DNA of 20,000 bases, taken from the IMG/VR virus record IMGVR_UViG_3300015245_000036. One strand, given 5' to 3'. This stretch comes from an uncultured virus (IMG/VR IMGVR_UViG_3300015245_000036) (taxonomy: Duplodnaviria; Heunggongvirae; Uroviricota; Caudoviricetes). Below, one piece after another: positions 3,515 through 20,000 of the stretch (the first letter of the stretch is position 1; each line of letters begins with the position of its first letter). Position numbers and translations under genes: made by a program. The notes beneath the pieces are model-generated. The model had not been told where the DNA came from and made no database searches. It saw only the letters and a list, made by a program, of their open reading frames with translations.

Positions 3515-4325
3515 CGAAGGTCTCCTGGAACGGTCCGCAGCTGCCCTGGTACGAGCACCACTCGCAGGGCCACCGGAGCTTGGGCTTCGCGGGGAACGGC
3601 TCGACGAGCGTCTCGGCGATCTCGTTGATGCGCGAGAACAGCCACGGCGCGTACACCTCGCGTACGCGCGTCGCGTCGTCGAAGTTGGGCATCCACTGGA
3701 TCGCCTTGGCCTCATCACCCTGCAGGAAGTGGATCGCGCCCCGCACCCCGTTCACGCCCGGCGTGTTCGGGATCGCAAGGATGTAGTACGACCACAGCTG
3801 CATCTGCTTCTTCTTGTCCTTCGCGAGGTCCTTGGCCACGCCGGACTTGTGGTCGATGACAACGAGGTCATCGTGCCGCGTGATGACGCCGAGGTCGACC
3901 TTGCCGCGGAAGAACACGTTCTTGTCAAAGAACCCAGCCGGCTTGAACTCCGCGGTGATCCCCCACGCCTCCTCCACTAGGAGACGCTTCACGCCCTCGC
4001 GCCTGCAGAACCCGTCGAACTTTCGCATGAACGAGTCCATGCGCTCCTCGAGCGTGCGGAGCGTGTCCTGCTCGTCCGAGGTCAACGGCGTGTTCTCCAG
4101 CGCGACCTTCTTGGCGTCAGATGCGTTAGCGCCCTTGACCCGGTGCTCCAAGATGCCGTGGGCAGCGGTGCCGACCACGGTCTCCGGCGCAGACGGCCCC
4201 GCGGCGGTCCGCAGTACGTGCTTGTGCTTGAACTGCGCAGGGCAGGACTCGCCTGTTTCCATCTTCGAGAACGACCACGCGGCGTGCTTCAACGCCGCCG
4301 GGGTCACGGTCAATGCGTGGGCCAC
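3498..4325 (-). CDS. PD-(D/E)XK nuclease, RecB/AddB/Cas4-like, with 4-Cys (putative Fe-S) staple
   Basis: WSFSKM...CPAQF, VGTAAHGILE, GKVDLG...VVIDHKSG, QLWSY and C-terminal CEWCSYQGSC. GAGGT precedes the GTG start. Confidence 0.85.
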   Translation of the reverse strand: MAHALTVTPAALKHAAWSFSKMETGESCPAQFKHKHVLRTAAGPSAPETVVGTAAHGILEHRVKGANASDAKKVALENTPLTSDEQDTLRTLEERMDSFMRKFDGFCRREGVKRLLVEEAWGITAEFKPAGFFDKNVFFRGKVDLGVITRHDDLVVIDHKSGVAKDLAKDKKKQMQLWSYYILAIPNTPGVNGVRGAIHFLQGDEAKAIQWMPNFDDATRVREVYAPWLFSRINEIAETLVEPFPAKPKLRWPCEWCSYQGSCGPFQETFGGQTS

Positions 4326-4387
4326 GGCCGCACCTCGTTGCTAGGGGATCTGGGTCATCAGAGGCCGCCGAGGGCGCGGCCGACGCG

Positions 4388-5479: not shown

Positions 5480-5546
5480 GATTCGTGTCCTTTATTCCCG
5501 TTGTTGTAACCATCTCAATCGATGGTTTCGACTGATTCGGTCTCGC

Positions 5547-5576
5547 AGTCTAGGCGCCCGAGTGCCGTAAAAGCAA
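5547..5576 (-). promoter_or_regulatory. Candidate sigma70-like promoter for the leftward SSB-nuclease-primase operon
   Basis: Minus strand TTGCTT-N18-TAGACT, ~70 nt upstream of the ATG at 5479, in a non-coding divergent gap. Confidence 0.45.
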
Positions 5577-5663
5577 GCAGGCTTGGTTTCGTTCGAGAGT
5601 CCGACCGGGCGCGTCCATCCCGGCCGTGAGACGCGCGTGGGGATTCAGCGCGTCGATGGTCTC

Positions 5664-5692
5664 TTGAAGATGCGACCCCGCTCCGCTAGTGT
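5664..5692 (+). promoter_or_regulatory. Candidate sigma70-like promoter for the phage sigma gene
   Basis: TTGAAG-N17-TAGTGT ending 12 nt before the ATG at 5705; no obvious Shine-Dalgarno, consistent with a very short leader. Confidence 0.5.
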
Positions 5693-5704
5693 GGTCGAAG
5701 CCGC

Positions 5705-6583
5705 ATGGATCAGTCTTTTCGTCCTAGGACAAGCGACCGTCCGCGTGTGGCCCGCCACCTGGCGGACGAAGAGGACAGCCGCCGCTCGTACTACGCGAGC
5801 ATAGGAAACACCCGGCCGGTGACGGACCCCCACGAGGAGCGCGTCCTGATCCGGCTGTGGCAGCGGCACAGGGACGTGCGGGCGCGGGACATCGTGGTCC
5901 AGAGCCACCTCCGTTTCGTGGTCCGCCAAGCGCATCGCAAGACCAACGACCGAAACGCCCTCCAGGACTACATCGCCGCCGGCAACCTCGGCCTGCTGCG
6001 CGCGATCGAGCCGGGGCACTTCAATCCCGAGAGGACGCCGTACATTAGGTTCCTCACTTACGCGGGGACTTGGGTCTACAAGGAGATGATGGACCAGGAC
6101 TACGCGTCCAGCTCGACGGTCCACATCCCTACACACAAGCAGAAGGAGCAGCGCAAGCAGGCACACGCGCAGCGAATGGCGGCAGCCCAGCACGGTCCCC
6201 GCTCGGAGGCGGCGTCCGCCGTCGAGTGCGTCACCTACCCCGTCGTCCGAATCGAAGACGTGTGTGACGAGGAGCTTTGCGCAGGCGTCGAAATTGCGAG
6301 CGAATACCACGCGAAACAGCTCTCCGATCTGCTCGAGGCAGCGTTGTCCAAACTACCCACGCGCGAGGCGACCATCATCCGCCTTCACTTCGGTGTCCGG
6401 AACGAGCCTCGCAGCCTCGAACAGATCGGAAAGATCATGTCAATGACCCCGGAGCGTGTCCGGCAAATCAAGGTCATCGCGCTCCGTCTCGTTCGACGCG
6501 ACCTCGAGTCCGACGTGCTCCGCCGCGACCTCGAGGCGGACGCCGCGCTCTTCGGCCTAGTCAGCTCGGCCGAGTCCGCATAA
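5705..6583 (+). CDS. Sigma70-family RNA polymerase sigma factor (regions 1.2, 2, 4)
   Basis: Region 1.2-like YYASIG...EERVL; region 2 SHLRFVV...DYIAAGNLGLLRAIE..F.PER...RFLTYAGTWV; region 4 HTH LPTREATIIRLHFG...SLEQIGKIMSMTPERVRQI. Confidence 0.92.
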   Translation: MDQSFRPRTSDRPRVARHLADEEDSRRSYYASIGNTRPVTDPHEERVLIRLWQRHRDVRARDIVVQSHLRFVVRQAHRKTNDRNALQDYIAAGNLGLLRAIEPGHFNPERTPYIRFLTYAGTWVYKEMMDQDYASSSTVHIPTHKQKEQRKQAHAQRMAAAQHGPRSEAASAVECVTYPVVRIEDVCDEELCAGVEIASEYHAKQLSDLLEAALSKLPTREATIIRLHFGVRNEPRSLEQIGKIMSMTPERVRQIKVIALRLVRRDLESDVLRRDLEADAALFGLVSSAESA

Positions 6584-7067
6584 ATTCCCTAGCCGCGGCC
6601 GCGATCGCCGCGTCGCACATCGCCTGGACCCGCTCCAGGATCTCTGGCCCCTCGGGCTCGTAGCGGCGGAACGGCGTGAGCTGCCCCGCCTGGTTGAGAA
6701 CCAGCGTGCTGACACTGGAGTCCATCAAGTCGATCCGCACCGCGGCCGCGACGTTGCCCGCGTCGTTTCGCGCGAGCACGCGAACCACGCCGAAGTCGAT
6801 CCCGCTGAACACCCACTCGCCCGGGCTGTTCTGCTGGATCGTGGCGAACAAGTTGAGCGGATCGATGGGCGCCTGCGCGATCAACGACATCAGCACATCG
6901 CCATTGAGCAGTCCGATCCGGTCCAGCTTCGCGAGTCGCTCCAGAAGCGTGGGCGGCGCGTGATCGCGGAGCTGAATGACGACCTCGCGCGCCACGGGGT
7001 CCAACGAGGCGTCCCTGCGAGGATCCGCACCCTCGCGCAGGGACATCACGTACTCGGCGAGCTTCAC
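6561..7067 (-). CDS. Hypothetical protein (168 aa)
   Basis: GTGA overlap with the ParB stop, protein-like composition, ends convergently overlapping the sigma gene by 23 nt. Confidence 0.7.
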   Translation of the reverse strand: MKLAEYVMSLREGADPRRDASLDPVAREVVIQLRDHAPPTLLERLAKLDRIGLLNGDVLMSLIAQAPIDPLNLFATIQQNSPGEWVFSGIDFGVVRVLARNDAGNVAAAVRIDLMDSSVSTLVLNQAGQLTPFRRYEPEGPEILERVQAMCDAAIAAAAREFMRTRPS

Positions 7068-8011
7068 AGGGTGTCACGCAGGCCGAGCACGTATTCGATG
7101 GCCTGAAGCTGATACTTGGTCTTGTCCGTCGCGTGACGCTGCTCGCGATTGACGAGCGTGCCGAGCGCCTCCAGTAGGGCCGGGCGCGGCCGTAGCGTGA
7201 TCTTCTTGTCCACGTAAGTCTCCTTGGCAAGGATGATCTTGTCCTGGTCGAACGTGTTCGCCTTGCGCCCAGTCTTCTTCTTCGGCGATGGGATCTTGGC
7301 AATGTCCTCCTTGACGTCCTCTACCGTCGGATACTTGCCCGAGGCGGCCTGCTTGCGTAGGGATTGGACCAGGCCCGGCTGCTTGTCCTTGGGCAGATCC
7401 GTGATCTCCCGGACCATCGTCGCGGAAATGATGCCGTCGTCGTATGCCTGCTTCACCTCATCGCTGGAGTTGCGGAGCATGGACAAGCGCTGGGACACCC
7501 AGGGCTCGGACTTTCCGAGCCGGCGGGCGACCTCGGTCTGCGTCGTCTTATGCTTCTCCATGTACGCCTTGATCGCGGCGCCCTCCTGGTAAGGATCGAG
7601 ATTGAGGCGCTGGAGGTTCTCCACTAGGTTTCGGACATCCTGGTCCTCCTCATCGCCCTTCACGTAGCGAACCGGGATCTGGTTCCAGGACGACGCCTTC
7701 GTCTTCTGCCCCGGAACCTTGTTCTCGCGAAGCAGCCCGATCGCGCCGTACCTGCGGTATCCACAGTCGAGCACGACCTTGCGCTTGCCGGTGGTTCGAG
7801 CAGGCCCACCCTCCCGAACGGCTAGGGGCGAGATCAACCCCTCCCGATCGATGCTGAGCGTGAATTCGAGATCCACCGAGTTCTCGAGGTCGAGCTTCAT
7901 CCGTCCCGTCTTCTGATCGCTGATGTTGTCGCCGATTTCGATGTCGGCGAACGCCACGAATGGCGGCTTGAACTTCACCGCCTGCGTATCTTCCTCGGTT
8001 GCGTTGCTCAT
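7064..8011 (-). CDS. ParB/Spo0J-like protein (ParB N-terminal domain + HTH)
   Basis: SIDREGLISPLAV, CGYRRYGA (GxRR), ENLQRLNLDPYQEG, HTH TQTEVARRLGKSEPWVSQRLSML. Confidence 0.88.
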   Translation of the reverse strand: MSNATEEDTQAVKFKPPFVAFADIEIGDNISDQKTGRMKLDLENSVDLEFTLSIDREGLISPLAVREGGPARTTGKRKVVLDCGYRRYGAIGLLRENKVPGQKTKASSWNQIPVRYVKGDEEDQDVRNLVENLQRLNLDPYQEGAAIKAYMEKHKTTQTEVARRLGKSEPWVSQRLSMLRNSSDEVKQAYDDGIISATMVREITDLPKDKQPGLVQSLRKQAASGKYPTVEDVKEDIAKIPSPKKKTGRKANTFDQDKIILAKETYVDKKITLRPRPALLEALGTLVNREQRHATDKTKYQLQAIEYVLGLRDTL

Positions 8012-8024
8012 GAGGTCCTTGGAG

Positions 8025-8183
8025 TCATCCGGTCAGTTGGCGCGCCATCTGACCGAGCTGGTTGATCGCAGCCGCGCGGGCCTTGGGGTCCTTGAGTACC
8101 AGGACCGCCGAGCCCAGCGTGGCGACGCGTAGTAGGAACAGGCCCGCCTCCCGAACGCGGGGGCTGGCGGTGATTCGTCGCAT
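8025..8183 (-). CDS. Small hypothetical protein (52 aa, hydrophobic core)
   Basis: Translated by hand: MRRITASPRVREAGLFLLRVATLGSAVLVLKDPKARAAAINQLGQMARQLTG. TGATG coupling with the upstream stop; fills the gap before ParB. Confidence 0.6.
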   Translation of the reverse strand: MRRITASPRVREAGLFLLRVATLGSAVLVLKDPKARAAAINQLGQMARQLTG

Positions 8184-8431
8184 CAGGCGTCCTTCGCGTG
8201 CTCGAGCACGCGGATCTTGGAAATCCTGTAATACGTCAGGTCGGCCAGCGACATGCCGCTGAGCACGTCGCCGACCTTGCTGTAGAACTCGTCGGACAGA
8301 TCGGCCATGGAGTAGGTCGGGTCATTCATCACAGCGAAGTACAGCGCCCGGATCGCCTTGAGACGTCCGACCACCTCGCCAGTCACCCGCTGGCTTGCGC
8401 CGCTGGACCCCTTGCGCGGCTTTCCGCTCAC
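8183..8431 (-). CDS. Hypothetical protein (82 aa)
   Basis: ORF track gives 8183..8482, but GTG at 8431 overlapping the upstream TGA (GTGA) is the more plausible start (MSGKPRKG...). Confidence 0.65.
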   Translation of the reverse strand: MSGKPRKGSSGASQRVTGEVVGRLKAIRALYFAVMNDPTYSMADLSDEFYSKVGDVLSGMSLADLTYYRISKIRVLEHAKDA

Positions 8432-8598
8432 GGCTTCCGGATCGTTGGCGACTCGAACGGCTTGGTCCCACAACGCGGGCACTTGGGCACGTTCGAAGAC
8501 GACTCGAGCCTGGAGCCGCAGGCCCCGCAGCGCGGGGTGACCGTTAGGTCCTCGGACACCTTGGTAGTGTCGGTGACATCGACTCCGTACTTTTCCAT
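8428..8598 (-). CDS. Small zinc-ribbon protein (56 aa)
   Basis: Translated by hand: MEKYGVDVTDTTKVSEDLTVTPRCGACGSRLESSSNVPKCPRCGTKPFESPTIRKP. Two CxxC pairs; below the ORF-track length cutoff. Confidence 0.75.
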   Translation of the reverse strand: MEKYGVDVTDTTKVSEDLTVTPRCGACGSRLESSSNVPKCPRCGTKPFESPTIRKP

Positions 8599-8616
8599 GA
8601 CTTCAGGTTACTCCGG

Positions 8617-9087
8617 TTAGCCGCGCAGCGAGACGCGTACTTCAGGAACCGTGATTCGCCCACGAACCATGATGTAGTCCTTGGCCGGCGGAGAGTCCTT
8701 GAGGAATTTCTGCGCCTTCGCGAGGCTCTTGAACGGATGAATGGTGCCCGTCGTGATGAACCACTCGTTCACCAGGGAGACCTTTCCGTAGATCACCGTG
8801 CACTGAGGAGCTTCGGGCGAATTCAGAAACTTCTCCGCCTTGGAGACGTCCGGAAACGTCTCCACTTTCCCCACGATGATGAAGTACTGGATCTTGTCCG
8901 TTTCGTTGCCTTCCTCCGACGAGGCCCCTTCGGACGAGAACGCCGAGGACGCGGGCGTGGACGCGGGCGGAGCCCCGTTTCCCACGGAAACCTTGACGTC
9001 GCTGGGGGTGACCGTCGGCTTCGCGGACGACGAGGCCGGAGGCGGGGTGGTGGTGGCAGAGGTGTTCTTGTTTGCGTTGTTATTCAT
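8617..9087 (-). CDS. Hypothetical protein with disordered N-terminus and internally duplicated ~38-aa module
   Basis: AAGGA RBS; S/T/P-rich N-half; two similar C-terminal units. Confidence 0.75.
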   Translation of the reverse strand: MNNNANKNTSATTTPPPASSSAKPTVTPSDVKVSVGNGAPPASTPASSAFSSEGASSEEGNETDKIQYFIIVGKVETFPDVSKAEKFLNSPEAPQCTVIYGKVSLVNEWFITTGTIHPFKSLAKAQKFLKDSPPAKDYIMVRGRITVPEVRVSLRG

Positions 9088-9105
9088 GTCGGTTTCCTTG
9101 CGATG

Positions 9106-10026
9106 TCAGCCGGCGCCCCTGCAGTGTCCCCACACGGGACACCACTTCTCGGAGCACCACCAGTTGTCTGGATCAGTGGGGGGAAAGTGACCTAGCGCGA
9201 TGGAGCGTGCGGCGCCCTCGAGGACCCTCAGCGCGTGCTTGGCCTGCCGCGGCGTGATGACACCCGTAATCTTCTCGTAGCGGGGTCTCGGGACCTTGGC
9301 GCGCCCCTTCACCAAGTTATCGATCTGAATGTCGGGAATGCCCTCGACGTGCGCGTACGTGGCGAACTGGAGACTGTTCTCGATGTCAGCCTCGTTCTTC
9401 TTGTCGGCGCTGACTTTCAGGTCGTGAATGCGGAGGGGCTTGCGCGACGGCCGACCCGCGGCGATGTCCTCTCGGATCTGCTGGTACTCGGCGTCGGTGT
9501 GCGCCTGGACCTGCGTGCTGTCGATGCGACCGAGGATGGGAAGGCGAACCTTGCCGTCCTCGGACTTGATCACCACGTGGAACGTAGTCTCGACCGAGAC
9601 CGGCGTGGAAGTCGGTCCCGCGTTCTGGTGAAAGATCTTGGCGCACTCAATGCCAACGTCCTTGACGGTGCCAGGCTGCGAGTCCTCCCAATCGTCGATC
9701 AGATTCTTGTTGGCTTCGAAGGCGTCGGAGAAGGAGTCGGTCGCAAGCGCCAGCGGCGGAAGCTTGCCGGTCGCCAGGATCTCCTTGAGCACAACTTCCA
9801 CCGCGGCGTGCACGAAGACGCCCTGCAGCATCCGCGCGGACGCGCGCCGAGCCTTCTGCTCAACGTACAGGAGCGCCCATTGGCGCGGACACTTGATAAA
9901 TGTCGCGGCCTGCGACACCGACAAATACCCACGCGGCAGGAGATCGGACATCTCCGGCTCGACGTCGGACGGCATGCTGATCGCCGGGTCAATGAGGTCC
10001 TCGACGTCCTCCATCCCGGTCGCCAT
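9106..10026 (-). CDS. Second PD-(D/E)XK nuclease, RecB/Cas4-like, 4-Cys
   Basis: YLSVSQ...KCPRQW, GVFVHAAVE, GRIDS...IHDLKVS, QFATY and C-terminal WCSEKWCPVWGHC. Confidence 0.85.
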   Translation of the reverse strand: MATGMEDVEDLIDPAISMPSDVEPEMSDLLPRGYLSVSQAATFIKCPRQWALLYVEQKARRASARMLQGVFVHAAVEVVLKEILATGKLPPLALATDSFSDAFEANKNLIDDWEDSQPGTVKDVGIECAKIFHQNAGPTSTPVSVETTFHVVIKSEDGKVRLPILGRIDSTQVQAHTDAEYQQIREDIAAGRPSRKPLRIHDLKVSADKKNEADIENSLQFATYAHVEGIPDIQIDNLVKGRAKVPRPRYEKITGVITPRQAKHALRVLEGAARSIALGHFPPTDPDNWWCSEKWCPVWGHCRGAG

Positions 10027-10478
10027 CAGCGCCCCCTTGGGGTAGTGCTGGGATATTCGGTCGACTCGTCGTCGGACAGACGCCGTTTGACGCGGTCGGG
10101 CGAGAACGGACCTACACCACCCGCGCGTGCGATCTTGGTGCTGGCGGCCGTGATGTCTTCCACGGTGCCCGGCGGCTCCCCGATGTCACCGATCGCCAAC
10201 GTGGGCCTGTTGCGGGGGGATGGCGCTTCGTCAAGCAGGTCCGCAGGCGCCGACAAGGCGTCGTCGTTCAGCTCCGGTTCGCGGTGACGAGACCGCATGG
10301 GGACCTCGCTCCAAGACACGTTGGCCTCGATCTCGATCTCCTTGACGCTGATACGCGCCCCGTCAACGCGAACCCAGATCTCGACCGACGCCGAGTCCGG
10401 CTCGAGCCCCTTTTCCTCGAGGTCTCTCGTGATGAGACCCATGATGTCGTCCATCTCGTAGGTGGTCTTGTTCTTCAA
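10026..10478 (-). CDS. Hypothetical protein (150 aa)
   Basis: TTG start after GGAGGA, overlapping the helicase stop; TGATG coupling to the downstream nuclease. Confidence 0.7.
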   Translation of the reverse strand: MKNKTTYEMDDIMGLITRDLEEKGLEPDSASVEIWVRVDGARISVKEIEIEANVSWSEVPMRSRHREPELNDDALSAPADLLDEAPSPRNRPTLAIGDIGEPPGTVEDITAASTKIARAGGVGPFSPDRVKRRLSDDESTEYPSTTPRGR

Positions 10479-12433
10479 GGTTCCTCCATGTCCGGCGCGT
10501 CGGCTCCCTCGAACGAGCGAGCCCGCGTGACCGGCCTGTCAATGGTCCTCTTGTACACGGAGCACCCGGCGTCAAACGGATGAACGCCCGCCGGGATGCA
10601 CGTGGGATTGTGCTCGCATCGCATGCAATCAGTACGTCGCGTGAGCGCATCGTCGACGTCGATCTTGACGTCGAGAAGGCGAGCGATCGCCGGCTCGGGC
10701 GTCCCCTCGCCCTGCATCCTATACACCGTAACCTTCCGTGTCTGCCCGATCCGGTAGTTCCGGTCCTTGGATTGCTCGTAGACGATCAGCGAGAACGGAA
10801 GCGCGTAGTAGATCATGTAGGAGGCCGCGTTGATCGTCACCCCGACGCCCGTCGAGACCTGCGCCAGGTACACGCGCAGTCCGGCGTCCGCGGTGAACTG
10901 ATCGATAAGCCCCTGGGCCTCCCGGCTGTTGGACCCGTCGACCCGGACGTGACCCCACCCTCGCCGATCGAGCATGGCGGACACGATGTTCAACTCGTTC
11001 TCGAACGTGCACCAGATGATCGTCTTGTTGACGGGGTCGGCCAGGATCATCTCGAGCAGCCCCTCGGTCGCGTCGAGCTTGGGATTCTCATCGAACGTCG
11101 TGAGCACGTCGGGGAGCTTCGTCGAGTCCACCAGGCAGCGAGGGGTGTGTGGGCGGATCCGGGCCTCGACGCAGGCCTCGAGATGCCGGCAGCCATGGGG
11201 CTCTGCCTGGTCGCAGAACGCGTCGTCGATCGGATTGGTGATGAGGAACCCCGACGCGATCTGCAGCAGCTTGATCAACATCGCCGCGCGATGAGGCATG
11301 CGGGACGCTGGCGGGAGCGACGCCTGTCGTCCGAACATGAGGATGGCGAGGATGTTAGGATCGACCTCCATCTGCTCGACAAGCTGGTTGTGCACCACCT
11401 TCTGCGTCCTGGACAACACGTAGGGAACGTCCACGATGACCTGCTCCGGAAGGTCGAGGCACTCCTCCTTCGTCTTGTGCAGCGACAGGAACGTCACCCG
11501 CCCGTTGAGCACGTCGAGATTCTTAAACCCGGTCACCACGTGGGACCGCGGGCTCGGCGTCACCAGGAACTTGCGCTTGAACTGCGAGTAGTCCTCCGGC
11601 ATGAAGCAGTCGCCGAGGACCTTGTACTGGCCGTAGGTGTCGCGCGGATCTCCCTGCGTCGGGGACCCCGTCATCAGGATTCGCCGGGAGGCCTTCTGCG
11701 CAATGTCGTAGGTCGCGACCGTTCGGCCCGACTCCCACGACTTCACAAGGTGAGACTCGTCGCATATGACCGCGGCGTACGGCACCCGGCGTACGAGGTC
11801 GGTGGACATCGCGCGCGCTCCGTCATACGTGAGAAGCACGACGTCCGGGGGGTGTTCCACGATCGTGGACAGGATGTCGACCCGCTCGGCCGGGGAGCCG
11901 TGGAGGATCACCCACCGAAGCTGGCCGCCGGAGTGCCGGTCGATCTCCCGGCCCCAGTTGGTGACGGTGACGAGAGGTCCCAGGACGAGGACCGTGCCGC
12001 GCTGGCCGACGTGACGCATCAGCCGAATCAGGTCGACCGCGATCTTGGACTTCCCAAGCCCCGGGGCGTAGAAGATCGCGGCACGGAGCATCCACCACGC
12101 GTGGCACAACCCCAGAACCTGGTGATCGTAGGGCGGCGTAACGAACTCGAACCCCACGGGAAGCGCCCGATTCGCTACACTCTCCTCGACGTGCTCGAGA
12201 TCCACCACGTGACGCCTGGCGACATCGGAGAACGTGACGTGGAAGTCCTTGGACATCACCTCCAGGTCGGACAACACCTTCTTCGAGGCAGGGTAAAACG
12301 CCGGGTACATCCAGAGCCGACGACCGGAATCGTACACAGCCCCGAACGGGCGTCCCAGCGCCGGATGGCTTCCGGTCGCCATGAACACGGGCGTCCCGTT
12401 GCCCGCGGCGCCGACTCGAATCTCAAGGTTCAC
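10475..12433 (-). CDS. SNF2-family (SF2) helicase/ATPase with two Cys/His-rich modules
   Basis: PYDHQ, APGLGKS (Walker A), ICDESH (DExH), MTGSP, RVDGS, GVGVTINAA, QSKDRNYRIGQ. Start moved from 12475 to GTG 12433, which follows AGGAGG. Confidence 0.9.
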   Translation of the reverse strand: MNLEIRVGAAGNGTPVFMATGSHPALGRPFGAVYDSGRRLWMYPAFYPASKKVLSDLEVMSKDFHVTFSDVARRHVVDLEHVEESVANRALPVGFEFVTPPYDHQVLGLCHAWWMLRAAIFYAPGLGKSKIAVDLIRLMRHVGQRGTVLVLGPLVTVTNWGREIDRHSGGQLRWVILHGSPAERVDILSTIVEHPPDVVLLTYDGARAMSTDLVRRVPYAAVICDESHLVKSWESGRTVATYDIAQKASRRILMTGSPTQGDPRDTYGQYKVLGDCFMPEDYSQFKRKFLVTPSPRSHVVTGFKNLDVLNGRVTFLSLHKTKEECLDLPEQVIVDVPYVLSRTQKVVHNQLVEQMEVDPNILAILMFGRQASLPPASRMPHRAAMLIKLLQIASGFLITNPIDDAFCDQAEPHGCRHLEACVEARIRPHTPRCLVDSTKLPDVLTTFDENPKLDATEGLLEMILADPVNKTIIWCTFENELNIVSAMLDRRGWGHVRVDGSNSREAQGLIDQFTADAGLRVYLAQVSTGVGVTINAASYMIYYALPFSLIVYEQSKDRNYRIGQTRKVTVYRMQGEGTPEPAIARLLDVKIDVDDALTRRTDCMRCEHNPTCIPAGVHPFDAGCSVYKRTIDRPVTRARSFEGADAPDMEEP

Positions 12434-12485
12434 GCGGAAAACCTCCTGCGCACCGTTACACGACGCGCGCAGCAATGTCTACAAA

Positions 12486-12500
12486 GTTTATAGGATAAAC
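12486..12500. repeat. AT-rich perfect inverted repeat GTTTAT-AGG-ATAAAC in the 73-bp divergent gap
   Basis: Read directly; ends 6 nt before the portal ATG and contains TAGGAT. Confidence 0.55.
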
Positions 12501-12506
12501 ATCTCC

Positions 12507-14303
12507 ATGTTGGACAACGATCCTGGTGGCGCAGATCTCTCCTTCCACAACGTGTCGAGCCACGGCTCGCCGTTGTTCGACTTCCTCACCGCGTTCGCGC
12601 CGAGGAAGCTGAAGGACCTCTTCCGGCTGTGCGAGTACCTCTACTTCAACTGCAGCCAGATCTTCGCCGCGCTTCAAAAGTTCTGCACGTACCCGATCAC
12701 GGACATCGTGTACGACACGACCAACGAGGGGCTCAAGTCCAAGTACGAGGACCTGCACAACAAGAAACTCAAGACCAAGCGCTGGCTGATCAAGGCGGCC
12801 ATCGATAAGTTCGTGTACGGCAACGCCTTCTACTCGATGTACTCGCCGTTTGTGCGGTTCCTGCGGTGCCCGGCGTGCAGCCAGCTGTCCAACGCCGGAT
12901 CGGTCAGCTACAAGTTCCGCCTCAAGAAGCTCTCGTTCAGCTACACGTGCGCCTCGTGCCGGGCCAAGGTCGACGTTGGACCCGAGGCGGTCGTCGACAA
13001 GCCCATCACGCGCCCCGACAAGATCGCGATCATCCGATGGGACCCCAAGCTGGTCGACATCGACTACAACCCCATCACCGGGCACAGCGAGTACTTCTGG
13101 ACGATCCCGAAGGAGATGAAGGAGCGCGTCGCCAAGAACAACAAGCACCTCATCGACAGCCTGCCCATGGAGTTCCTCAAGGCCATGAGGGACGACAAGA
13201 TCTTCAAGTTCGCCGAGAACCAGGTCTTCCACATGAAGATGGACGCGCCCGCCGGCATCGAGGCCCAGTGGGGCTTCCCGCCGCTGGCATCCACCATCAA
13301 GCTCTTCTTCTACGCGGCCGTCCTCCGCAAGGCCAACGAGGCGATCGCGCTGGACTACATCGTGCCGCTCCGCATCGTCAGTCCGAAGCAGTCGACCGGG
13401 AACGCGGATCCGCTCCTGTCGATGAACCTGGCGACCTGGACCAACGAAATGAAGCACTCGGTCAAGCGCTGGCGCCGCGACCCGCTGCACATCATGTGGT
13501 CCCCTGTCCCCGCCGAGGTCACGCATCTCGGCGGGCAGGCCCGTGCGCTCATGACGCTCGGCGAAGTCCAAGCGGCGGAGGACAACATCATCGCGGCCAT
13601 GGGCCTGCCGAAAGAGTTCATCTACGGCGGGTTCTCCGCGATGGGCTCGGGGATCCAGCTTCGCGTCCTAGAAAACCAGCTCGTTCACCAGACCGGCGAT
13701 CTCAACGACTTCCTGCAGTGGATCACCGACAACGCCGGCCGCAAGCTCGGCTGGGGACCGATGCCGACGGAGCTTGCGCCGTTCAGGTTCATCGACGATG
13801 TCCAGCAAAAGGCGCTGCTGATGCAGCTCAACATGGCTGATCCCCAGAACGGTCCCTGGATCTCCAAGACCACGATGGGCAAGCCGTTCGACGTCGACCC
13901 GATCGAGGAGCGCAAGAAGCGGAAGCAGGAGATGCTCGACGACGCCCGCATGAACGCAGAGACGCAGGTCGAGCTGCAGAAGCGCCAGACCGAGCTTGGC
14001 GCCCGGGTCCGCGCGCAGGCGCAGCTCGGTCAGCAGGGCGCCGCCTACGACCCCCAGCAGATGATCGACCAGGCCGACAGCGTCGTGGAGCAGCTGATGC
14101 CGCTCGACCAGGGCACGCGCCAGTCGCAGATGCACCAACTCCAGACCACCGACCTGCCGATGTACGCGCTGGTCAAGGAGCGGATGGAGAACGCGGTCCA
14201 CCAGCAGAACAGGGCCGCGATCAGCGTGGCGCGCACCGGGCAGGACCCGACCGCGGGCGGCGCGGACGTGGACGGCGTTGGCGCCTCGGATCAGATAGGA
14301 TAG
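12507..14303 (+). CDS. Putative phage portal protein with CxxC...CxxC insertion and Gln-rich C-terminus
   Basis: Portal-like segments DKFVYGNAFYS, FHMK...WGFPPL, IIAAMGLPKEFIYGG; ~600 aa. Start set at ATG 12507 because the track start at 12381 overlaps the helicase head-to-head. Confidence 0.65.
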   Translation: MLDNDPGGADLSFHNVSSHGSPLFDFLTAFAPRKLKDLFRLCEYLYFNCSQIFAALQKFCTYPITDIVYDTTNEGLKSKYEDLHNKKLKTKRWLIKAAIDKFVYGNAFYSMYSPFVRFLRCPACSQLSNAGSVSYKFRLKKLSFSYTCASCRAKVDVGPEAVVDKPITRPDKIAIIRWDPKLVDIDYNPITGHSEYFWTIPKEMKERVAKNNKHLIDSLPMEFLKAMRDDKIFKFAENQVFHMKMDAPAGIEAQWGFPPLASTIKLFFYAAVLRKANEAIALDYIVPLRIVSPKQSTGNADPLLSMNLATWTNEMKHSVKRWRRDPLHIMWSPVPAEVTHLGGQARALMTLGEVQAAEDNIIAAMGLPKEFIYGGFSAMGSGIQLRVLENQLVHQTGDLNDFLQWITDNAGRKLGWGPMPTELAPFRFIDDVQQKALLMQLNMADPQNGPWISKTTMGKPFDVDPIEERKKRKQEMLDDARMNAETQVELQKRQTELGARVRAQAQLGQQGAAYDPQQMIDQADSVVEQLMPLDQGTRQSQMHQLQTTDLPMYALVKERMENAVHQQNRAAISVARTGQDPTAGGADVDGVGASDQIG

Positions 14304-14307
14304 CGCC

Positions 14308-14679
14308 ATGAACAAGCCAAACGTGGGCGGCTTTCAGGACGTGATTGACCAGGCGAACCAGATGACGCAGGGCCCGATCGCGAGCCCATTCGGCATCCCA
14401 CAGCAGGCGTTGGCGCAGGGACCGCGTCTGCCGATCCGGCAGACGACCCAGGTGTTCAACCTGCCGCGGAACATCGCCGCCTACGACGAGCTGTGCAACG
14501 AGCTGTGGGCCGGACGGGGCAAGATTCGATTCGAGGACAGAACCTTCACCAAGGAAGGCGAGGTCGTGATCATCCTGTCCTACTTCACCGACGCGCCCGC
14601 GCAGCGCCCACAGCCGGCAGTGGTTGGCGGCGCGGGTGGCGGGGAAGAAGCTGCCGTAGTGCCATACAGGATCCCATGA
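14308..14679 (+). CDS. Hypothetical protein (123 aa)
   Basis: 4 nt after the portal stop; its TGA overlaps the RNAP ATG (ATGA). Confidence 0.75.
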   Translation: MNKPNVGGFQDVIDQANQMTQGPIASPFGIPQQALAQGPRLPIRQTTQVFNLPRNIAAYDELCNELWAGRGKIRFEDRTFTKEGEVVIILSYFTDAPAQRPQPAVVGGAGGGEEAAVVPYRIP

Positions 14680-17600
14680 CGGATGCTTCTACCAAAACAC
14701 AGCCGGTTCTAAGGCCCGTCCTCGAAGACAGCACCACGCGCAGGGAGAAGATTCGGCAGGCGGCCATCCAGGGTCTCGGCAAGGCCTTCCCCATGAAGGC
14801 GGGCAAGTGGACGGTCGAGCTTGCCGACGCCCGCATCGAGCCGCGCGAGTTCTCGTCGCGCGAGCAGAAAATGGCCATTCTCGAGGGAAAGACGCTGTCG
14901 GAGCGCGTCCGCGGCGATCTGACCGTCCGCGACGCGCAGGGCGCGGTGGCTAGCCGCGCCCAGGGATTCACGTTGCTCCATCTCCCCTACTTCACGCCGC
15001 GCCACACGTTCATACTCGACGGCACGGAGTACTCCGTGTCCAACCAGCTCCGGACCAAGCCGGGCGTCTACGTTCGTCGGCGAGGCAACGAGGAGCTGGA
15101 GGCGGCGTTCAACCTGTCAAAGGGTGCGAACTTCAAGGTCATGATGGAGCCCGAGAAGGGTCTTCTGTACATGCAGCCGGGGCACACGACCGCCCGCGTC
15201 GCGCTCTATCCCGTCCTTCGAGCGCTCGACGTCCCGCACCACGACATCGTTCGAAGCTGGGGACCGCAGGTCGCGGCCATCAACCGCGACGCTTTTCGAT
15301 CTCCCGACGCCCATGTCGGGCGTCTCTACGAGGCCCTGATCCATCCGGCCAAGCGGAATCACGCCACGCCCGAGGCCCGCGTCGGGGCCATCCGAGAGTA
15401 CCTCGAGGCCACGTCGATGGACCCGGAGGTTAACCGCGTAACGCTCGGAAGCCCGTTCGACAAGGCGTCGGGACAAGCCATGCTCGCCGCGTCGAACAAG
15501 ATCCTCGAGGTTCATCGCAAGTCCGCCGACGTCGACGACCGCGACAGCCTTGCGTTCAAGACGTTCCACTCGGTGGACGACTTCGTCAGGGAGCGCTTGC
15601 AGCTGGACGCGCGCGCCATGCGCAACAAGCTGGGTTGGAAGCTCGACGCCAACCGGGGCTCAATCAAGGAAGCCCTGCCCGCCGCGCCGCTCACGCGAGC
15701 CGTCACGGGATTCCTGACGACCAGCTCGTTGTCCGCGGTCCCGATGCAGATAAACCCGATGGAGCTTGTCGACGAGGCGTCACGCGTCACCTTGCTGGGC
15801 GAGGGCGCGATCGCTTCGGAGCGCGCGATTCCGCTCGAGGCCCGAGACGTCCATTCCACGCACCTCGGCATCATTGATCCCACGCGCGTGCCCGAGTCCT
15901 TCAAGGTCGGCGTCGACCTGCGCGTCGGGATCGGCACGCGGAGAGACGACCATGGCAACCTGTACGCGCCCGTGCGGAACGTCCGGACCGGCAAGGACGA
16001 GTACCTCAAGGCTGCCGACATGGCCAAGGCGGTGGTCGCGTTCCCCGGAGGGGATCTCGGCGCGGGGAAGATCGTCGACGTGATGAAGGACGGATCCGTG
16101 CAGCGCGTGGCGTCGTCGGAGGTGACCTACCAGATACGGCACGCCTCGGACATGTATGGCGCGACGACCAACCTTCTCCCCTTGCTCAACGGCATGCAGG
16201 GCAACCGCGCACTGATGGCGTCGAAGCACCAGGGGCAGGCGCTTCCCTTGCTGCACCGCGAGGCGCCCCTGGTGCAGGTCGAGTCTTGGAATCCGGGCAT
16301 GTCGGTCGAGCGGGAGATGGTGCGGCTGATCGTGCCAACCGCGCCGACAGCCGGCCGCATCGACAAGATCGACGCAGACTACATCCACTTCGTTCCGAGC
16401 GGCGAGAAGCGAGCTGCCGACGGGCCCATCCGCCTGCACTACGATCACGACCTCCCGCTCGCGGCCAAGACCTACCTCGACAACAAGCTGACGGTGAAGG
16501 AGGGAGACCTCGTGCGCGAAGGCCAGCCGCTCGCCGAGTCCAACTTCACCAGGGACGGCGTGCTCGCGCTGGGAACCAATCTGCGCGTGGCGTACATGCC
16601 GTATCGCGGCCTGAACACTAACGACGGGATCGTGGTCAGCCAGGGCGCGGCGGACAAGCTCACGTCCGAGCACATGTTCCATCACGTGCTGAGCAAGGCC
16701 GGCGATGTCGAGACCAACAGGGAGAAGCACCGCGCGTACTTCGGTGGGCGGTACTCGGCTCGGCAGTACGACGCGCTCGACGAGAGCGGCGTCGCCCGGC
16801 CGGGGACCGTCCTGCAGAAGGGCGACCCGATCATCATCGGTGTGAGGCCAGAGACCGCGACGGGCGACGCCGCGCTGCTAGGGAAGCTCTCCAAGTCGCT
16901 CGTTCGCCCCTACGCCGAGGTCGTCGAGACATGGACGCACGACCACCCGGGGATCGTGACCGATGTCTCGAAGACCGGCGAGCGCCACAGCGCGACGGTC
17001 AAGACGCAGGAGACCCTGCAGGTCGGCGACAAGATCTCAAACCGCTACGGCGCCAAGGGGGTGGTCGCCAAGGTCGTGCCCGACGCCCAGATGATCCAGG
17101 ACGAGAAGGGTCGCCCGGTCGACGTCATCCTCACCAGCGCCGGCATCATCACGCGCATCAACCCGGCCCAGCTGGTCGAGGCGTCGCTCGGCAAGGTCGC
17201 CGATCATCGAGGCGAGCCCATCCTCGTCCCGCAGTTCGCCGCGCGGGACGCCGTCGCCTACGCCAAGGACCTGCTCAAGGCCAACGGCCTGTCAGACAAG
17301 GAGACGGTGGTCGACCCGATGACGGGCAAGAGCGTGCCAGGCGTGTTCGTCGGCAAGTCGTACTTCCTCAAGCTGTTCAAGACGACCGACAGCAACTGGG
17401 CGGCGCACGGCGCCGAGCGCTACGACTACAACCAGCAGCCGGCCCGCGGCGGCGATGACGGAGCCAAGGGCATCGGCAAGATGGAGTTCGACGGTCTCGT
17501 CGCGCACAACGCCCGCGCCGTGCTTCGCGAGTCCGCGGCGATCAAGAGCCAGCGCAACGACGAGTTCTGGCGCTCGGTGCAGCTCGGCACCCCCGCACCC

Positions 17601-19052
17601 GCGCCGCGCACGCCGTTCGCGTACGACAAGCTGCACGCGATGCTCTCGGGTGCGGGCGTCAAGATCTCCAAGGCCGGCTCGAGGCAGGCGCTGGGACCGC
17701 TCACCGACGCGGACATCCTGAAAATGTCCTCGGGCGTGCTCCCGGAGCCGAGCAAGATGGTCAGGGCCAAGGACCTGCGTCCCGAGACCGGCGGGATGTT
17801 CGACCCCGCGAGAACCGGCGGAATGGCCGGGACGAAGTGGTCGCACGTCGAGCTGTCCGAGCCGATTGTCAACCCCGTATTCGAGGAGCCCGTGCGCCGG
17901 CTCCTGGGCCTGACGCAAAAGGAGTTCACGGAGAAAACCGGCCACGGTGGCGAGTGGTTCCGCGCGGCGCTGGGTCGAATCGACGTGCCGTCCCGACTCG
18001 AGGAGCTGCGCGATCGATCGAGACGCCTGCGCGGCGCGGCGCTCGACGATGCCGTCAAGCAGGCCAAGTACCTGGCGGCTCTCCAGGCGCACGGGCTGAA
18101 GCCCGCCGACGCCTACGTGATCAGCAAGGTGCCGGTCACGCCGCCGGTCATTCGACCGATCCTTCCCCTCAAGGACGGCAGGCTCCAAGTCGGCGACGCG
18201 AACCTGCTCTACCGCGACGCGTTTCTGGCGAACGACCAGTTGAAGGACTCGGTGGGCGTTCTGCCCGGGCCCGAGCTTCACGCGCCGCGTAGGCACCTGT
18301 ACGACGCGGTCAGCGCGTTGTTCGGCGTCGGCGATCCGGTCAGCCCGGGGGTGCAGCGTCGCGGCGCCAAGGGGTACATCGCGACGATCACGGGAAGCCG
18401 ACCGGGCTCGGGGTTCTTCCAGTCCAAATTGATGAAGCGCCAGCAGGACGTCAGCGGGCGCGCGACCATCGCGCCGGACCCGACGCTGTCCATGGACGAG
18501 ATCGGGGTGCCCACTGACATGCTTTGGGGCATGTATTCCAAGTTCGTAATCGGGCGACTCGTGCGTCGAGGCTATTCGGCTATCGATGCACAGAAGTTAG
18601 TGGAGGACAAGGCGCCGATCGCCAAAGACGAGTTGATCAACGAGACCAGGGAACGCCCGGTCATGGTGAACCGCGCACCCTCGCTGACCCGCCACAACAT
18701 CATCGGCGCCTATCCGAGGATGACTGAAGGCAAAACGATCACGCTCAACCCGTTCGCCGAGCGTGGAACCAACGCGGACTATGACGGCGACGCGATGCAG
18801 ATCCACGCTCCGGTGACGCCTGCGGGCGTGGAGGACGTCAAACGAATGACGCTCTCGCACCAGATCTTCGCGGATCGGAGGCCGGGCATGCTCAACGTCG
18901 CACCCGACATGGAAGCCGTGCTCGGTCTCCACCGAGCAACCCAGCCGGCCTCCGATCGAGCCGCGAAGAGGTTCGCGTCGCTGCAGGATGCCCGTGCGGC
19001 GTACCATCGCGGCGAGGTCGCCCTGAACGACCATATCCACGTCGGCGAGTGA
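14676..19052 (+). CDS. Multisubunit-type DNA-directed RNA polymerase: beta-like subunit fused to N-terminal half of beta' (1458 aa)
   Basis: Collinear beta motifs: FILDGTEYSVSNQLRTKPGVY, RDVHSTHLG, NRALMASKHQGQALPL, ALGTNLRVAYMPY, GDKISNRYGAKGVV, YFLKL, QQPARGG, IGKMEF. Then beta' motifs: HVELSEP, VPVTPPVIRP, DVSGRATI, NRAPSL, NADYDGD (18771-18791), VLGL. Start at ATG 14676 (ATGA coupling) rather than 14493. Confidence 0.95.
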   Translation: MTDASTKTQPVLRPVLEDSTTRREKIRQAAIQGLGKAFPMKAGKWTVELADARIEPREFSSREQKMAILEGKTLSERVRGDLTVRDAQGAVASRAQGFTLLHLPYFTPRHTFILDGTEYSVSNQLRTKPGVYVRRRGNEELEAAFNLSKGANFKVMMEPEKGLLYMQPGHTTARVALYPVLRALDVPHHDIVRSWGPQVAAINRDAFRSPDAHVGRLYEALIHPAKRNHATPEARVGAIREYLEATSMDPEVNRVTLGSPFDKASGQAMLAASNKILEVHRKSADVDDRDSLAFKTFHSVDDFVRERLQLDARAMRNKLGWKLDANRGSIKEALPAAPLTRAVTGFLTTSSLSAVPMQINPMELVDEASRVTLLGEGAIASERAIPLEARDVHSTHLGIIDPTRVPESFKVGVDLRVGIGTRRDDHGNLYAPVRNVRTGKDEYLKAADMAKAVVAFPGGDLGAGKIVDVMKDGSVQRVASSEVTYQIRHASDMYGATTNLLPLLNGMQGNRALMASKHQGQALPLLHREAPLVQVESWNPGMSVEREMVRLIVPTAPTAGRIDKIDADYIHFVPSGEKRAADGPIRLHYDHDLPLAAKTYLDNKLTVKEGDLVREGQPLAESNFTRDGVLALGTNLRVAYMPYRGLNTNDGIVVSQGAADKLTSEHMFHHVLSKAGDVETNREKHRAYFGGRYSARQYDALDESGVARPGTVLQKGDPIIIGVRPETATGDAALLGKLSKSLVRPYAEVVETWTHDHPGIVTDVSKTGERHSATVKTQETLQVGDKISNRYGAKGVVAKVVPDAQMIQDEKGRPVDVILTSAGIITRINPAQLVEASLGKVADHRGEPILVPQFAARDAVAYAKDLLKANGLSDKETVVDPMTGKSVPGVFVGKSYFLKLFKTTDSNWAAHGAERYDYNQQPARGGDDGAKGIGKMEFDGLVAHNARAVLRESAAIKSQRNDEFWRSVQLGTPAPAPRTPFAYDKLHAMLSGAGVKISKAGSRQALGPLTDADILKMSSGVLPEPSKMVRAKDLRPETGGMFDPARTGGMAGTKWSHVELSEPIVNPVFEEPVRRLLGLTQKEFTEKTGHGGEWFRAALGRIDVPSRLEELRDRSRRLRGAALDDAVKQAKYLAALQAHGLKPADAYVISKVPVTPPVIRPILPLKDGRLQVGDANLLYRDAFLANDQLKDSVGVLPGPELHAPRRHLYDAVSALFGVGDPVSPGVQRRGAKGYIATITGSRPGSGFFQSKLMKRQQDVSGRATIAPDPTLSMDEIGVPTDMLWGMYSKFVIGRLVRRGYSAIDAQKLVEDKAPIAKDELINETRERPVMVNRAPSLTRHNIIGAYPRMTEGKTITLNPFAERGTNADYDGDAMQIHAPVTPAGVEDVKRMTLSHQIFADRRPGMLNVAPDMEAVLGLHRATQPASDRAAKRFASLQDARAAYHRGEVALNDHIHVGE

Positions 19053-19072
19053 CGGCCTATACTTAGGGTGCC

Positions 19073-19540
19073 GTGCCCTTTCGATCCGAAGCGCAGCGAA
19101 AGTACCTATGGGCCAACCACCCCGAGGTCGCACGGGAGTTCGCGGACCACACGCCCAAGGGCGAGATGCTCCCGGAGCACGTCAAGCGCGCGAGCGCGTC
19201 GGGCGTGCTTGCCGCGCTGGAGCGCTTCGGCCTCAAGCACGCCGGGGAGGAACTTCGGCTCAAGATTCCGGATCGGACCTTCCACGGATTCGACGCGGCA
19301 GGCAGGACAGTGGCGGCGAAGGGCCACGCCAAGAAGGCGAACACCTACGGCGACCGACGGTCGTCGGAGGACCTGGCGCGCATGCTTCAAGCGCTCGACG
19401 AGCCACCACAGCCGGGCGGGCTCGTGGCGTCCAAGAACCCGCTCGATCGCTCGACCAACTGGGGTCCGCCGAGCAACATGGCCGCCGGTGATGTCGGCGG
19501 CCGATCTGGTGTTGGTCCATCTGCGTTTGGAGGCGTCTGA
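19073..19540 (+). CDS. Hypothetical phage protein with MPFRSEAQRKYLWANHPE-type N-terminus
   Basis: 155 aa. The N-terminal basic motif resembles one I recall from uncharacterised phage proteins (not verified). TGATG coupling to the next gene. Confidence 0.75.
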   Translation: MPFRSEAQRKYLWANHPEVAREFADHTPKGEMLPEHVKRASASGVLAALERFGLKHAGEELRLKIPDRTFHGFDAAGRTVAAKGHAKKANTYGDRRSSEDLARMLQALDEPPQPGGLVASKNPLDRSTNWGPPSNMAAGDVGGRSGVGPSAFGGV

Positions 19541-19953
19541 TGCTGTCGGCTCGCGTCACCTCGTTTGCTCATGCGGGCGTCCAGCGCGCCCTGGCAAGGT
19601 TCAAGATCGCGGACGTCGCGCCAGCAGGGATCCTCGACAAGCTCAAGACGTTCGGGTCGGGCCAGGTCGGGGCCGCGAAGGATTTGTTCCACAACCTGCG
19701 CGGCGGCCTGGGCGGACAGATGAACTCCGCCCTGGTCACGGGGGCCGTGCCGCCGCAGAGCATGGACCTCGCGCGAGCGACTCACCGACAGCAGGCTCTC
19801 GGAAACGTGGGCAAGCTCGCACCGACGCTCGCCGGTGGCGGATTGTACATGTGGCACCGACGCAACCAAGAGCAGGATGAGCAGTCGCGCCGCCGAGCCA
19901 TGATGGCCCAGCAGGGCTATGGCGGGCCCCAGGGCTACCCGCCCTCGATGTGA
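19540..19953 (+). CDS. Hypothetical Gly/Ala-rich protein (137 aa), possibly virion-associated
   Basis: Translationally coupled start; Gly-rich amphipathic stretches with short hydrophobic LAPTLAGGGLYMW. Confidence 0.7.
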   Translation: MLSARVTSFAHAGVQRALARFKIADVAPAGILDKLKTFGSGQVGAAKDLFHNLRGGLGGQMNSALVTGAVPPQSMDLARATHRQQALGNVGKLAPTLAGGGLYMWHRRNQEQDEQSRRRAMMAQQGYGGPQGYPPSM

Positions 19954-19954
19954 C

Positions 19955-20000
19955 ATGCGAACGCTGGGACAACACCTCGTCGACGCCGTGCTGCCCAAGG
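19955..20000 (+). CDS. Start of probable RNA polymerase beta' C-terminal-half subunit (truncated by window)
   Basis: ATG 1 nt after the previous stop. MRTLGQHLVDAVLPK resembles the beta' segment TTVGR-hh-xx-h-LP/VPK that normally follows the point where the fused protein ends. Only 15 codons are visible. Confidence 0.55.
   Translation, partial: MRTLGQHLVDAVLPK

Follow-up and report, generated by a model that had tools for sequence, protein, structure and literature searches.

To our knowledge, multisubunit RNA polymerases (RNAPs) are normally built on a platform formed by an alpha dimer, and the known exceptions are the very divergent enzymes of phiKZ-type phages. In bacterial RNAP the C-terminus of beta and the N-terminus of beta′ are neighbours, and an artificial fusion of the two is tolerated in Escherichia coli. 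The naturally fused RpoBC proteins of Helicobacter and Wolbachia work together with alpha and omega, and the RNAPs of cyanobacteria and plastids have alpha and omega as well. Here we analysed a polymerase gene on a stretch of 20,000 nucleotides (hereafter the window) from an uncultured virus of the Caudoviricetes (IMG/VR record IMGVR_UViG_3300015245_000036). Its product, P0001, is a chain of 1458 amino acids (aa) in which beta is fused to the first half of beta′ (beta′N), and the remainder of beta′ (beta′C) is encoded by a separate gene.

Among phage enzymes, the RNAPs of phiKZ and AR9 contain neither alpha nor omega, have beta′ split behind the barrel, at the cyanobacterial site, and one of their enzyme sets is packaged in virions (PMC7598289). 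In phages of this type beta is in two to three pieces with nothing fused, and each genome encodes two sets of the enzyme but lacks a sigma-70-family factor (PMC7598289, PMC7824862). The mReC phages, another group, are uncultured tailed phages whose beta and beta′ are alignable with cellular RNAP and form a separate long branch (PMC7481178). In the available portions of that paper the beta and beta′ matches are separate and no fusion is described, and on a contig in its annotation sheet Rpb1_2 and Rpb1_5 belong to two different genes, both distinct from the beta genes. The supplements do not contain any of the contigs related to our window; of the six metagenome identifiers of these loci, one appears there a single time, as a TerL reference on another contig.

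Read as its reverse complement, the window corresponds to bases 1-19,936 of a viral record in IMG/VR, which is 21.1 kb long and rated 11% complete by CheckV. Its guanine-cytosine (GC) content is 61-68%, and GC at third codon positions marks the coding frames clearly. The P0001 gene begins with an ATG at 14676, which overlaps the stop of the open reading frame (ORF) upstream as ATGA, and ends with a stop codon at 19050-19052 (Table 1). This confirmed the single open frame for one 1458-aa chain that a preliminary description of the sequence had reported at 14676..19052. Homologues of 1457-1460 aa span 100% of P0001 from end to end, and therefore ATG 14676 is the right start. A longer frame from a GTG at 14493 was rejected as the gene start, since these homologues cover the ATG-started chain completely.

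The preliminary description had read beta motifs followed in order by N-terminal beta′ motifs, and all of the motifs that it quoted were found at their places. The chain also contains GDKISNRYGAKGV, which we take to hold the catalytic lysines. The preliminary description had further expected the Rpb2 domains to be followed by Rpb1_1, Rpb1_2 and part of Rpb1_3. The Pfam scan returned Rpb2_3, Rpb2_6, Rpb1_1 (sub-threshold) and Rpb1_2 in this order, but no part of Rpb1_3; neither this domain nor Rpb1_4 or Rpb1_5 was found in P0001 at E<=0.1. In the alignment to the NCBI rpoB model (PRK00405), residues 268-997 of P0001 correspond to profile positions 320-1092 of 1096, so that the beta alignment stops at residue 997, within 4 positions of the C-terminus of the model. 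Solved bacterial beta chains align to residues 100-1015 (best E 5e-58) and solved beta′ chains to residues 1084-1456 (E 4e-45), the latter being equivalent to positions ~161-530 of E. coli beta′ or 186-558 of the 625 positions of cyanobacterial gamma. At such E values a chance match is no concern. Residues 1005/1006-1043 pair with residues 14-50 of mycobacterial beta′ in a sub-alignment that is weak and not significant on its own; as aligned here, the beta′ part would begin without its first dozen or so residues. Because the beta match ends at 997 and the beta′ match starts at 1005, the link is about seven residues long (SKAGSRQ), in agreement with the linker of fewer than 10 aa proposed earlier at ~17660-17690. 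The Pfam matches and the solved chains likewise bear out that both double-psi barrels lie in one 1458-aa chain that is well alignable with cellular RNAP.

The N-terminal zinc ribbon of beta′, usually a four-cysteine element, is missing from P0001, because the chain contains no cysteines and has 40 residues between positions 1043 and 1083, where mycobacterial beta′ has ~200. The best NCBIfam match was PRK09603, the Helicobacter-type beta/beta′ model. However, all cellular equivalog cut-offs were missed widely (334 bits vs 5372 for PRK09603, 285 vs 896 for PRK00405, 177 vs 964 for rpoC_TIGR and 139 vs 1117 for the gamma model PRK02625).

Several lines of evidence address the junction itself. Between 14701 and 18301, third-position GC stays within 0.84-0.94 in a single frame, with no change across the junction. 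We also compared the region with assembled Logan contigs from other public runs, which share 0.16-0.32 of the sampled words. Contigs from three runs cross the junction with 0 gaps, namely X1 (9558 nt, 46 differences), X2 (593 nt, 17295-17884) and X3 (4144 nt, 75 differences), and no insertions or deletions are listed in them. A protein search with P0001 found 468 relatives at E<=0.001. Among the 120 matches listed, all contain both PF00562 and PF00623 and none contains PF04998; 89 are 1438-1493 aa long, 29 are longer and 2 are shorter. In an alignment of 32 sequences (identity down to 31%), the junction is conserved and none of the 26 two-chain rows differs in length there, and P0001 residues 1368, 1370, 1371 and 1372 (D1110, D1112, G1113 and D1114 of the first row) are invariant in all 32. 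The beta-beta′N fusion is thus confirmed as genuine: the codon bias is continuous, the contigs from three runs are gapless and both domains occur in every listed homologue, which together argue against an assembly error.

The 29 longer homologues among the matches listed carry inserts at four recurring sites, after P0001 residues ~408, ~581, ~788 and ~1377, and none at the junction. The inserts after residues ~408 and ~788 measure ~340-360 aa and those after ~581 measure ~100-210 aa, some of the latter with Pfam matches to GNAT acetyltransferases. One insert of ~514 aa near NADYDGD, after ~1377, has a LAGLIDADG match. The large inserts may be inteins. P0001 itself has no insert at any of the four sites.

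The preliminary description had stated that the bridge helix and the trigger loop are absent. This holds for the 1458-aa chain but not for the locus, as both are encoded in a separate beta′C gene that starts at 19955, ~0.9 kb after the P0001 gene and 1 base after the stop of the ORF at 19540-19953. No Rpb1_5 match was found in the window's own record, which ends before this gene. The last 64 bases of the window (19937-20000) lie outside the IMG/VR record; they continue in frame as the start of the beta′C gene, identical to that of locus L005, and the window must therefore derive from a longer version of this contig. In L005, a relative with 96% identity, the same two small ORFs as in the window separate the polymerase gene from the gene for a 592-aa protein, P0124. 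Besides matching Rpb1_5 (PF04998), P0124 can be aligned to solved beta′ chains; the alignment begins at about residue 666 of the mycobacterial chain and covers the regions of the bridge helix and the trigger loop. P0124 has four cysteines (residues 211, 260, 267 and 270), the last three of which presumably represent the C-x6-C-x2-C pattern of the beta′ zinc site. Of the 26 related viral loci, 21 have a same-strand beta′C ORF downstream of the fusion gene, and in the remaining five <1.4 kb of DNA follows the fusion. The distance from one polymerase gene to the other ranges from ~0.5 kb (locus L029) to 4.8 kb with nine opposite-strand genes in the cultured Salmonella phage Arash.

To examine which other subunits accompany these chains, we used five long relatives, which are viral records of 156-188 kb; three of them are at least 94% complete and two have terminal repeats. 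All five genomes have an Rpb1_5 match in a frame of 594-609 aa. In the searches for Rpb2_6, alpha, omega and sigma, the controls were positive in 14/14 reference genomes each time. Each genome has one Rpb2_6 frame and therefore a single polymerase set, unlike phiKZ. The alpha N-terminal domain (PF01000) was found in none of the five, nor was omega (PF01192) above its cut-off, with one match at E 0.02. Sigma region 4 was present in all five, with one to three matches each. From these profiles, the RNAP of the family appears to consist of two chains used with ordinary sigma-70-type factors, with no recognisable alpha or omega encoded. The two-chain family shares 27-30% identity with bacterial RNAP and is much closer to it than phiKZ-type enzymes are.

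The same layout occurs in cultured phages. Searching GenBank phages with tblastn, we found four records with 33-35% identity over 99-100% of the chain length. In Arash (OQ632216), the long chain is gp206 (1525 aa, 'RNA polymerase subunit beta') and the beta′C homologue is gp216 (606 aa). In the Vibrio phages D69, D148 and D181 (OZ195729, OZ196545 and OZ196140), the long chain is labelled 'hypothetical protein', and D69 0264 is a beta′C homologue. These phages share with the window the two-chain layout, the order portal, small ORF, polymerase, the presence of sigma factors and a place in the same clade of split forms, but they are distant in sequence and have other hosts and GC contents. In Arash, moreover, the polymerase genes are further apart than the 0.9 kb seen in the window. 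The window itself has the single beta-beta′N ORF, a same-strand beta′C gene downstream, the position after a portal gene and a small ORF, and a sigma factor nearby. The partition is not peculiar to this window but is standard for a large, little-studied family of >100 protein clusters that includes cultured phages in GenBank.

Arash is a 180.8-kb myovirus without characterised relatives (PMC10585845). Mass spectrometry of its virions gave more spectra for Gp206 than for any other protein (3516, with 100% coverage), above the major capsid protein, and also detected Gp216 (1210 spectra), the sigma factor Gp10, the helicase Gp217 and the portal gp204 (PMC10585845). Arash is so far the only member for which both chains are known to occur in virions. 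The authors suggest a role in early transcription. They call the two chains 'beta' and 'beta′', and the string 'fus' is absent from the available text of the paper (PMC10585845). A full-text search, with most subscription journals outside its coverage, found no published description of a beta-beta′N fusion with a separate beta′C. It is likewise undescribed in the available portions of PMC7481178, PMC7598289, PMC7824862, PMC13282480 and PMC10585845, and this partition has apparently not been described in print.

In some lineages (P0125-P0137 and P0142-P0161; loci L027-L030) beta′C carries long C-terminal extensions, to a total of 1040-1775 aa, and P0161 adds NUDIX and SNF2-helicase domains. In Arash, the gene of the virion-detected helicase, gp217, directly follows beta′C. 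Given the helicase domains of P0161 and the position of gp217 beside beta′C, having a helicase as partner of the polymerase may be characteristic of the family.

Searching with beta′C for longer proteins, we found one-chain beta-beta′ forms of 1994-2527 aa (P0139-P0141, P0146 and P0163-P0166) that carry Rpb2_3, Rpb2_6, Rpb1_1, Rpb1_2, Rpb1_4 and Rpb1_5. Their loci L039-L041 are on viral contigs, and a portal homologue was detected in one of the three, L039. At 31-39% identity, they resemble the two-chain forms in that beta is joined to beta′ and the zinc ribbon is absent, and L039 also has the portal gene as a neighbour. In contrast, their beta′ is unbroken and aligns straight through the point at which, in the window phage, the frame stops and a new one starts after two ORFs; in P0140 this point falls within a complete Rpb1_3 match. 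Quick maximum-likelihood trees were calculated for the beta′C region (52 rows, 615 columns) and the beta region (41 rows, 882 columns). In both, all split forms were one clade with a Shimodaira-Hasegawa-like approximate likelihood ratio test (SH-aLRT) value of 99, which supports a single origin of the split. In the beta′C tree, the one-chain forms branched off one after another at deeper positions. Because fusing and then splitting takes two events, whereas the alternative takes three or more, the split is probably secondary.

The beta tree also placed the 21 phage rows and 20 bacterial rpoB sequences on opposite sides of a long, fully supported branch. The bacterial sequences came from a pattern-biased scan of reference genomes, no archaeal or eukaryotic outgroup was included and long-branch effects are likely; on such a tree, the long branch may or may not reflect the deep-branching lineage that the preliminary description had suggested. 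Within this biased sample, a tree placing the phage proteins inside a bacterial clade, the outcome that would have counted against a viral enzyme, was thus not obtained.

Among the described systems, the Helicobacter and Wolbachia RpoBC proteins (PRK09603, PRK14844) are, like the phage chain, single polypeptides in which the C-terminus of beta leads into the N-terminus of beta′. These proteins are complete cellular fusions of ~2840-2890 positions with all of beta′, whereas the phage beta′ is cut after the catalytic barrel. The phage enzyme shares with cyanobacteria and plastids a beta′ broken after this barrel: the break lies within ~10 aligned residues of the boundary between RpoC1 (gamma) and RpoC2, and the phage beta′C starts within ~10 aligned residues of the start of RpoC2. 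In those enzymes, however, beta is separate and gamma runs ~67 residues past the end of the phage chain alignment. The enzymes of phiKZ and AR9 are far more divergent from cellular RNAP than that of the window, in which beta is intact and fused, and a single Rpb2_6 frame and sigma region 4 were found in every long relative. The earlier claim that this partition differs both from complete cellular fusions and from phiKZ-type splitting therefore stands.

All the data make it highly probable that P0001 is the large chain of a two-chain, bacterial-type RNAP core of an uncultured phage of ~160-195 kb. This chain comprises all of beta, the ~7-residue link and the first half of beta′ with both double-psi barrels, and the second chain, from the gene at 19955, is the rest of beta′ with the bridge helix, the trigger loop and the second zinc site. 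We propose that an active core could form from the two chains with no need for an alpha dimer, whose tethering role would pass to the covalent link between beta and beta′. Phage sigma-70-type factors would direct the enzyme to promoters, and the one encoded at 5705-6583 is a probable specificity subunit. Because the polymerase gene adjoins the portal gene, and because of the Arash virion proteomics, we further propose that the enzyme may be packaged in the head, injected and start transcription. The break in beta′ would be a secondary event in a lineage descended from an ancestor with an unbroken beta-beta′ chain. As a whole, this model of a sigma-70-dependent enzyme that does without alpha and omega through its covalent tie, is co-packaged with sigma and injected, and was broken secondarily at the cyanobacterial/phiKZ site, is put forward tentatively, as we rate it somewhat below an even chance.

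A number of observations weigh against this model. The window's own beta′C gene is visible for 15 codons only. The absence of alpha and omega was read from two Pfam profiles, and a divergent or non-homologous assembly factor, or the use of host alpha, is possible. For every member of the family, we infer that the enzyme is active, has the proposed subunits, depends on sigma and does not need host alpha. The beta tree leaves the one-chain forms in an unresolved fork, monophyly of these forms was not rejected (approximately unbiased (AU) test, p = 0.129), their paraphyly was not significant, and the case for a secondary split is mainly one of parsimony. In addition, 116 proteins, ribonucleotide reductases among them, were recorded in the virion proteome of Arash, and the authors of that study allow carry-over of proteins abundant during infection; gp196, the positional match of the window's sigma factor, is not seen in the available virion table (PMC10585845). 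Some of these points would also fit a polymerase that is neither packaged nor independent of alpha, but is made after infection, assembles with host alpha (and omega) and, together with phage sigmas, serves in the middle or late phase. As the beta and beta′ parts align well with cellular enzymes, surfaces for binding alpha might persist. We nevertheless regard this reading as rather unlikely, since the gene lies in the head module right after the portal gene in every relative examined, Gp206 exceeds even the major capsid protein in Arash virions (PMC10585845) and phiKZ-type RNAPs work without alpha (PMC7598289).

That the 1458-aa chain is a self-sufficient, minimal two-barrel polymerase, like YonO or the crAss-like phage enzyme, with beta′C dispensable, could be argued from the presence of both catalytic barrels in one chain and from the existence of single-chain two-barrel RNAPs, which are named in PMC7481178. 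We consider this very improbable: beta′C was present wherever the DNA sufficed, keeps bridge-helix and trigger-loop sequence, is abundant alongside Gp206 in Arash virions (PMC10585845) and is part of the same protein in the one-chain relatives. An origin of the fusion by frameshift or mis-assembly of rpoB with a truncated rpoC, or a decaying pseudogene, has next to no likelihood in our view. The junction was checked in assembled contigs and not in raw reads, and one contig of run X2, at 2.5x, has an odd joint that skips 17587-17688, ~100 bases over the beta C-terminal tail and the link. Low-support joints of this kind in metagenomes often come from other organisms, and the contig may represent a divergent relative. 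The continuous frame and codon bias, the three independent gapless contigs, the conservation of the junction down to 31% identity, the same layout in four cultured phage genomes and the complete peptide coverage of Arash Gp206 (PMC10585845) effectively refute such an artefact. Just as little weight is left for a cellular bacterial rpoBC fusion on a contig mislabelled as viral. Two relatives are filed under bacterial metagenome-assembled genomes (MAGs), and the best NCBIfam model is of the Helicobacter type. However, the scores fall far under every cellular cut-off, the gene is surrounded by a portal-like gene, primase, nucleases and an SNF2 helicase instead of ribosomal-protein genes, the long relatives are viral records, two of them with terminal repeats, and the 20 sampled bacteria lie on the other side of the long branch. 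A cellular origin is thereby effectively refuted as well.

The partition described here is real, conserved and not unique to the window, and the enzyme is not truncated. Since GenBank labels the long chain 'beta' or 'hypothetical protein', surveys that search for rpoB and rpoC as two genes can misinterpret such phages. Members such as Arash on Salmonella and D69 on Vibrio are in culture and make the family a tractable system. It raises the questions of whether a covalent beta-beta′ link can replace an assembly platform, why three separate lineages tolerate a break of beta′ at one and the same position and whether a virus can inject a sigma-dependent holoenzyme. If the enzyme is indeed packaged, alpha-less and sigma-using, a virus would deliver a complete cellular-style holoenzyme, which would offer a test of the minimum set of subunits for a bacterial-type RNAP, and the break in beta′ would mark a permissive site used independently by cyanobacteria and phiKZ-like phages.

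Table 1. Features of the polymerase locus and its surroundings in the 20,000-nucleotide window
Feature	Residues of P0001	Window positions	Strand	Basis or remark
Large RNAP chain gene (beta fused to N-terminal half of beta′), P0001	1-1458	14676..19052	+	1458 aa, no internal stops
Beta-like part	1-997	14676..17666	+	Pfam, PRK00405, solved beta chains
Rpb2_3	358-412	15747-15911	+	Pfam
Rpb2_6 (PF00562), beta double-psi barrel region	622-916	16539-17423	+	Pfam E 3e-42
GDKISNRYGAKGV, beta lysine motif	784-796	17025-17063	+	Motif in sequence
PRTPFAYDKLHAMLSGAGVKI, beta C-terminus-like	977-997	17604-17666	+	Motif in sequence
Seven-residue link SKAGSRQ, beta C-terminus to beta′ N-terminal region		17667..17687	+	Alignment limits on either side
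Beta′ N-terminal half	1005-1458	17688..19049	+	Pfam, solved beta′ chains
ALGPLTDADILKMSSG, beta′ N-terminal motif	1005-1020	17688-17735	+	Motif in sequence
RPETGGMFD, beta′ N-terminal motif	1035-1043		+	Motif in sequence
Rpb1_1	1134-1191	18075-18248	+	Pfam, below Pfam cut-off
Rpb1_2 (PF00623)	1325-1391	18648-18848	+	Pfam E 1e-19
NADYDGD, catalytic, magnesium site	1366-1372	18771-18791	+	Motif in sequence
AYHRGEVALNDHIHV, end of alignable beta′ part	1442-1456		+	Motif in sequence
Beta′ C-half gene, first 15 codons (MRTLGQHLVDAVLPK), cut by window end		19955..20000	+	Start identical to P0124
DnaG-type primase, large ORF running off window start, >1239 aa		2-3718	-	Zinc finger, weak Toprim match, primase PHROG matches at aa 787-1127
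PD-(D/E)XK nuclease, Cas4/RecB-like		3498-4325	-	PHROG 69 'exonuclease'
Sigma-70-family factor, regions 2 and 4		5705..6583	+	Pfam Sigma70_r2 and r4; phrog_351 E 3e-31; syntenic with Arash gp196
ParB-like protein		7064-8011	-	Family matches
Second PD-(D/E)XK nuclease, Cas4/RecB-like		9106-10026	-	PHROG 69 'exonuclease'
SNF2 helicase		10475-12475	-	Family matches
Portal-like protein, 640-aa ORF (true start may lie further in)		12381..14303	+	Homologous to Arash portal gp204, E 3e-79
123-aa ORF directly upstream of polymerase		14308..14679	+	Conserved in L005; weak in Vibrio phage D69 (E 3e-5); position of Arash gp205
155-aa ORF between polymerase genes		19073..19540	+	L005 E 2e-92; one weak PHROG match of unknown function
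137-aa ORF between polymerase genes		19540..19953	+	L005 E 2e-78; no Pfam/PHROG match

The remaining genes of the window agree with the phage setting that had been expected: on this IMG/VR viral contig the polymerase gene has a portal-like gene, a primase, nucleases, a ParB-like protein and an SNF2 helicase nearby and no ribosomal-protein genes around it. Portal homologues occupy the same position in L004, L005, L027 and L039. The order portal, small ORF, polymerase is common to Arash, D69, L005 and L027, and in the one-chain locus L039 the portal gene is also upstream. The 640-aa ORF had no Pfam or PHROG match. It was considered as the missing half of beta′ and rejected, as it contains no RNAP domain and is homologous to the Arash portal. 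A homologue of the 155-aa ORF follows the one-chain polymerase gene in L041 (E 2e-12). The sigma factor gene also matched NCBIfam sigma models, below their cut-offs.

Third-position GC places the real start of the primase ORF near 3300 and not at 3718. From its domain matches, this ORF may encode a primase fused to a further domain. The two PD-(D/E)XK nuclease genes are 5 kb apart. Among the relatives filed under bacteria, L042 is a 131-kb contig of an Acidimicrobiaceae bin with a two-chain form at 41% identity, and L043 is a 204-kb contig of a Bacteroidales bin with an open frame of 2873 aa. Both are probably phage contigs that were swept into bacterial MAG bins, and the bins possibly hint at the hosts.

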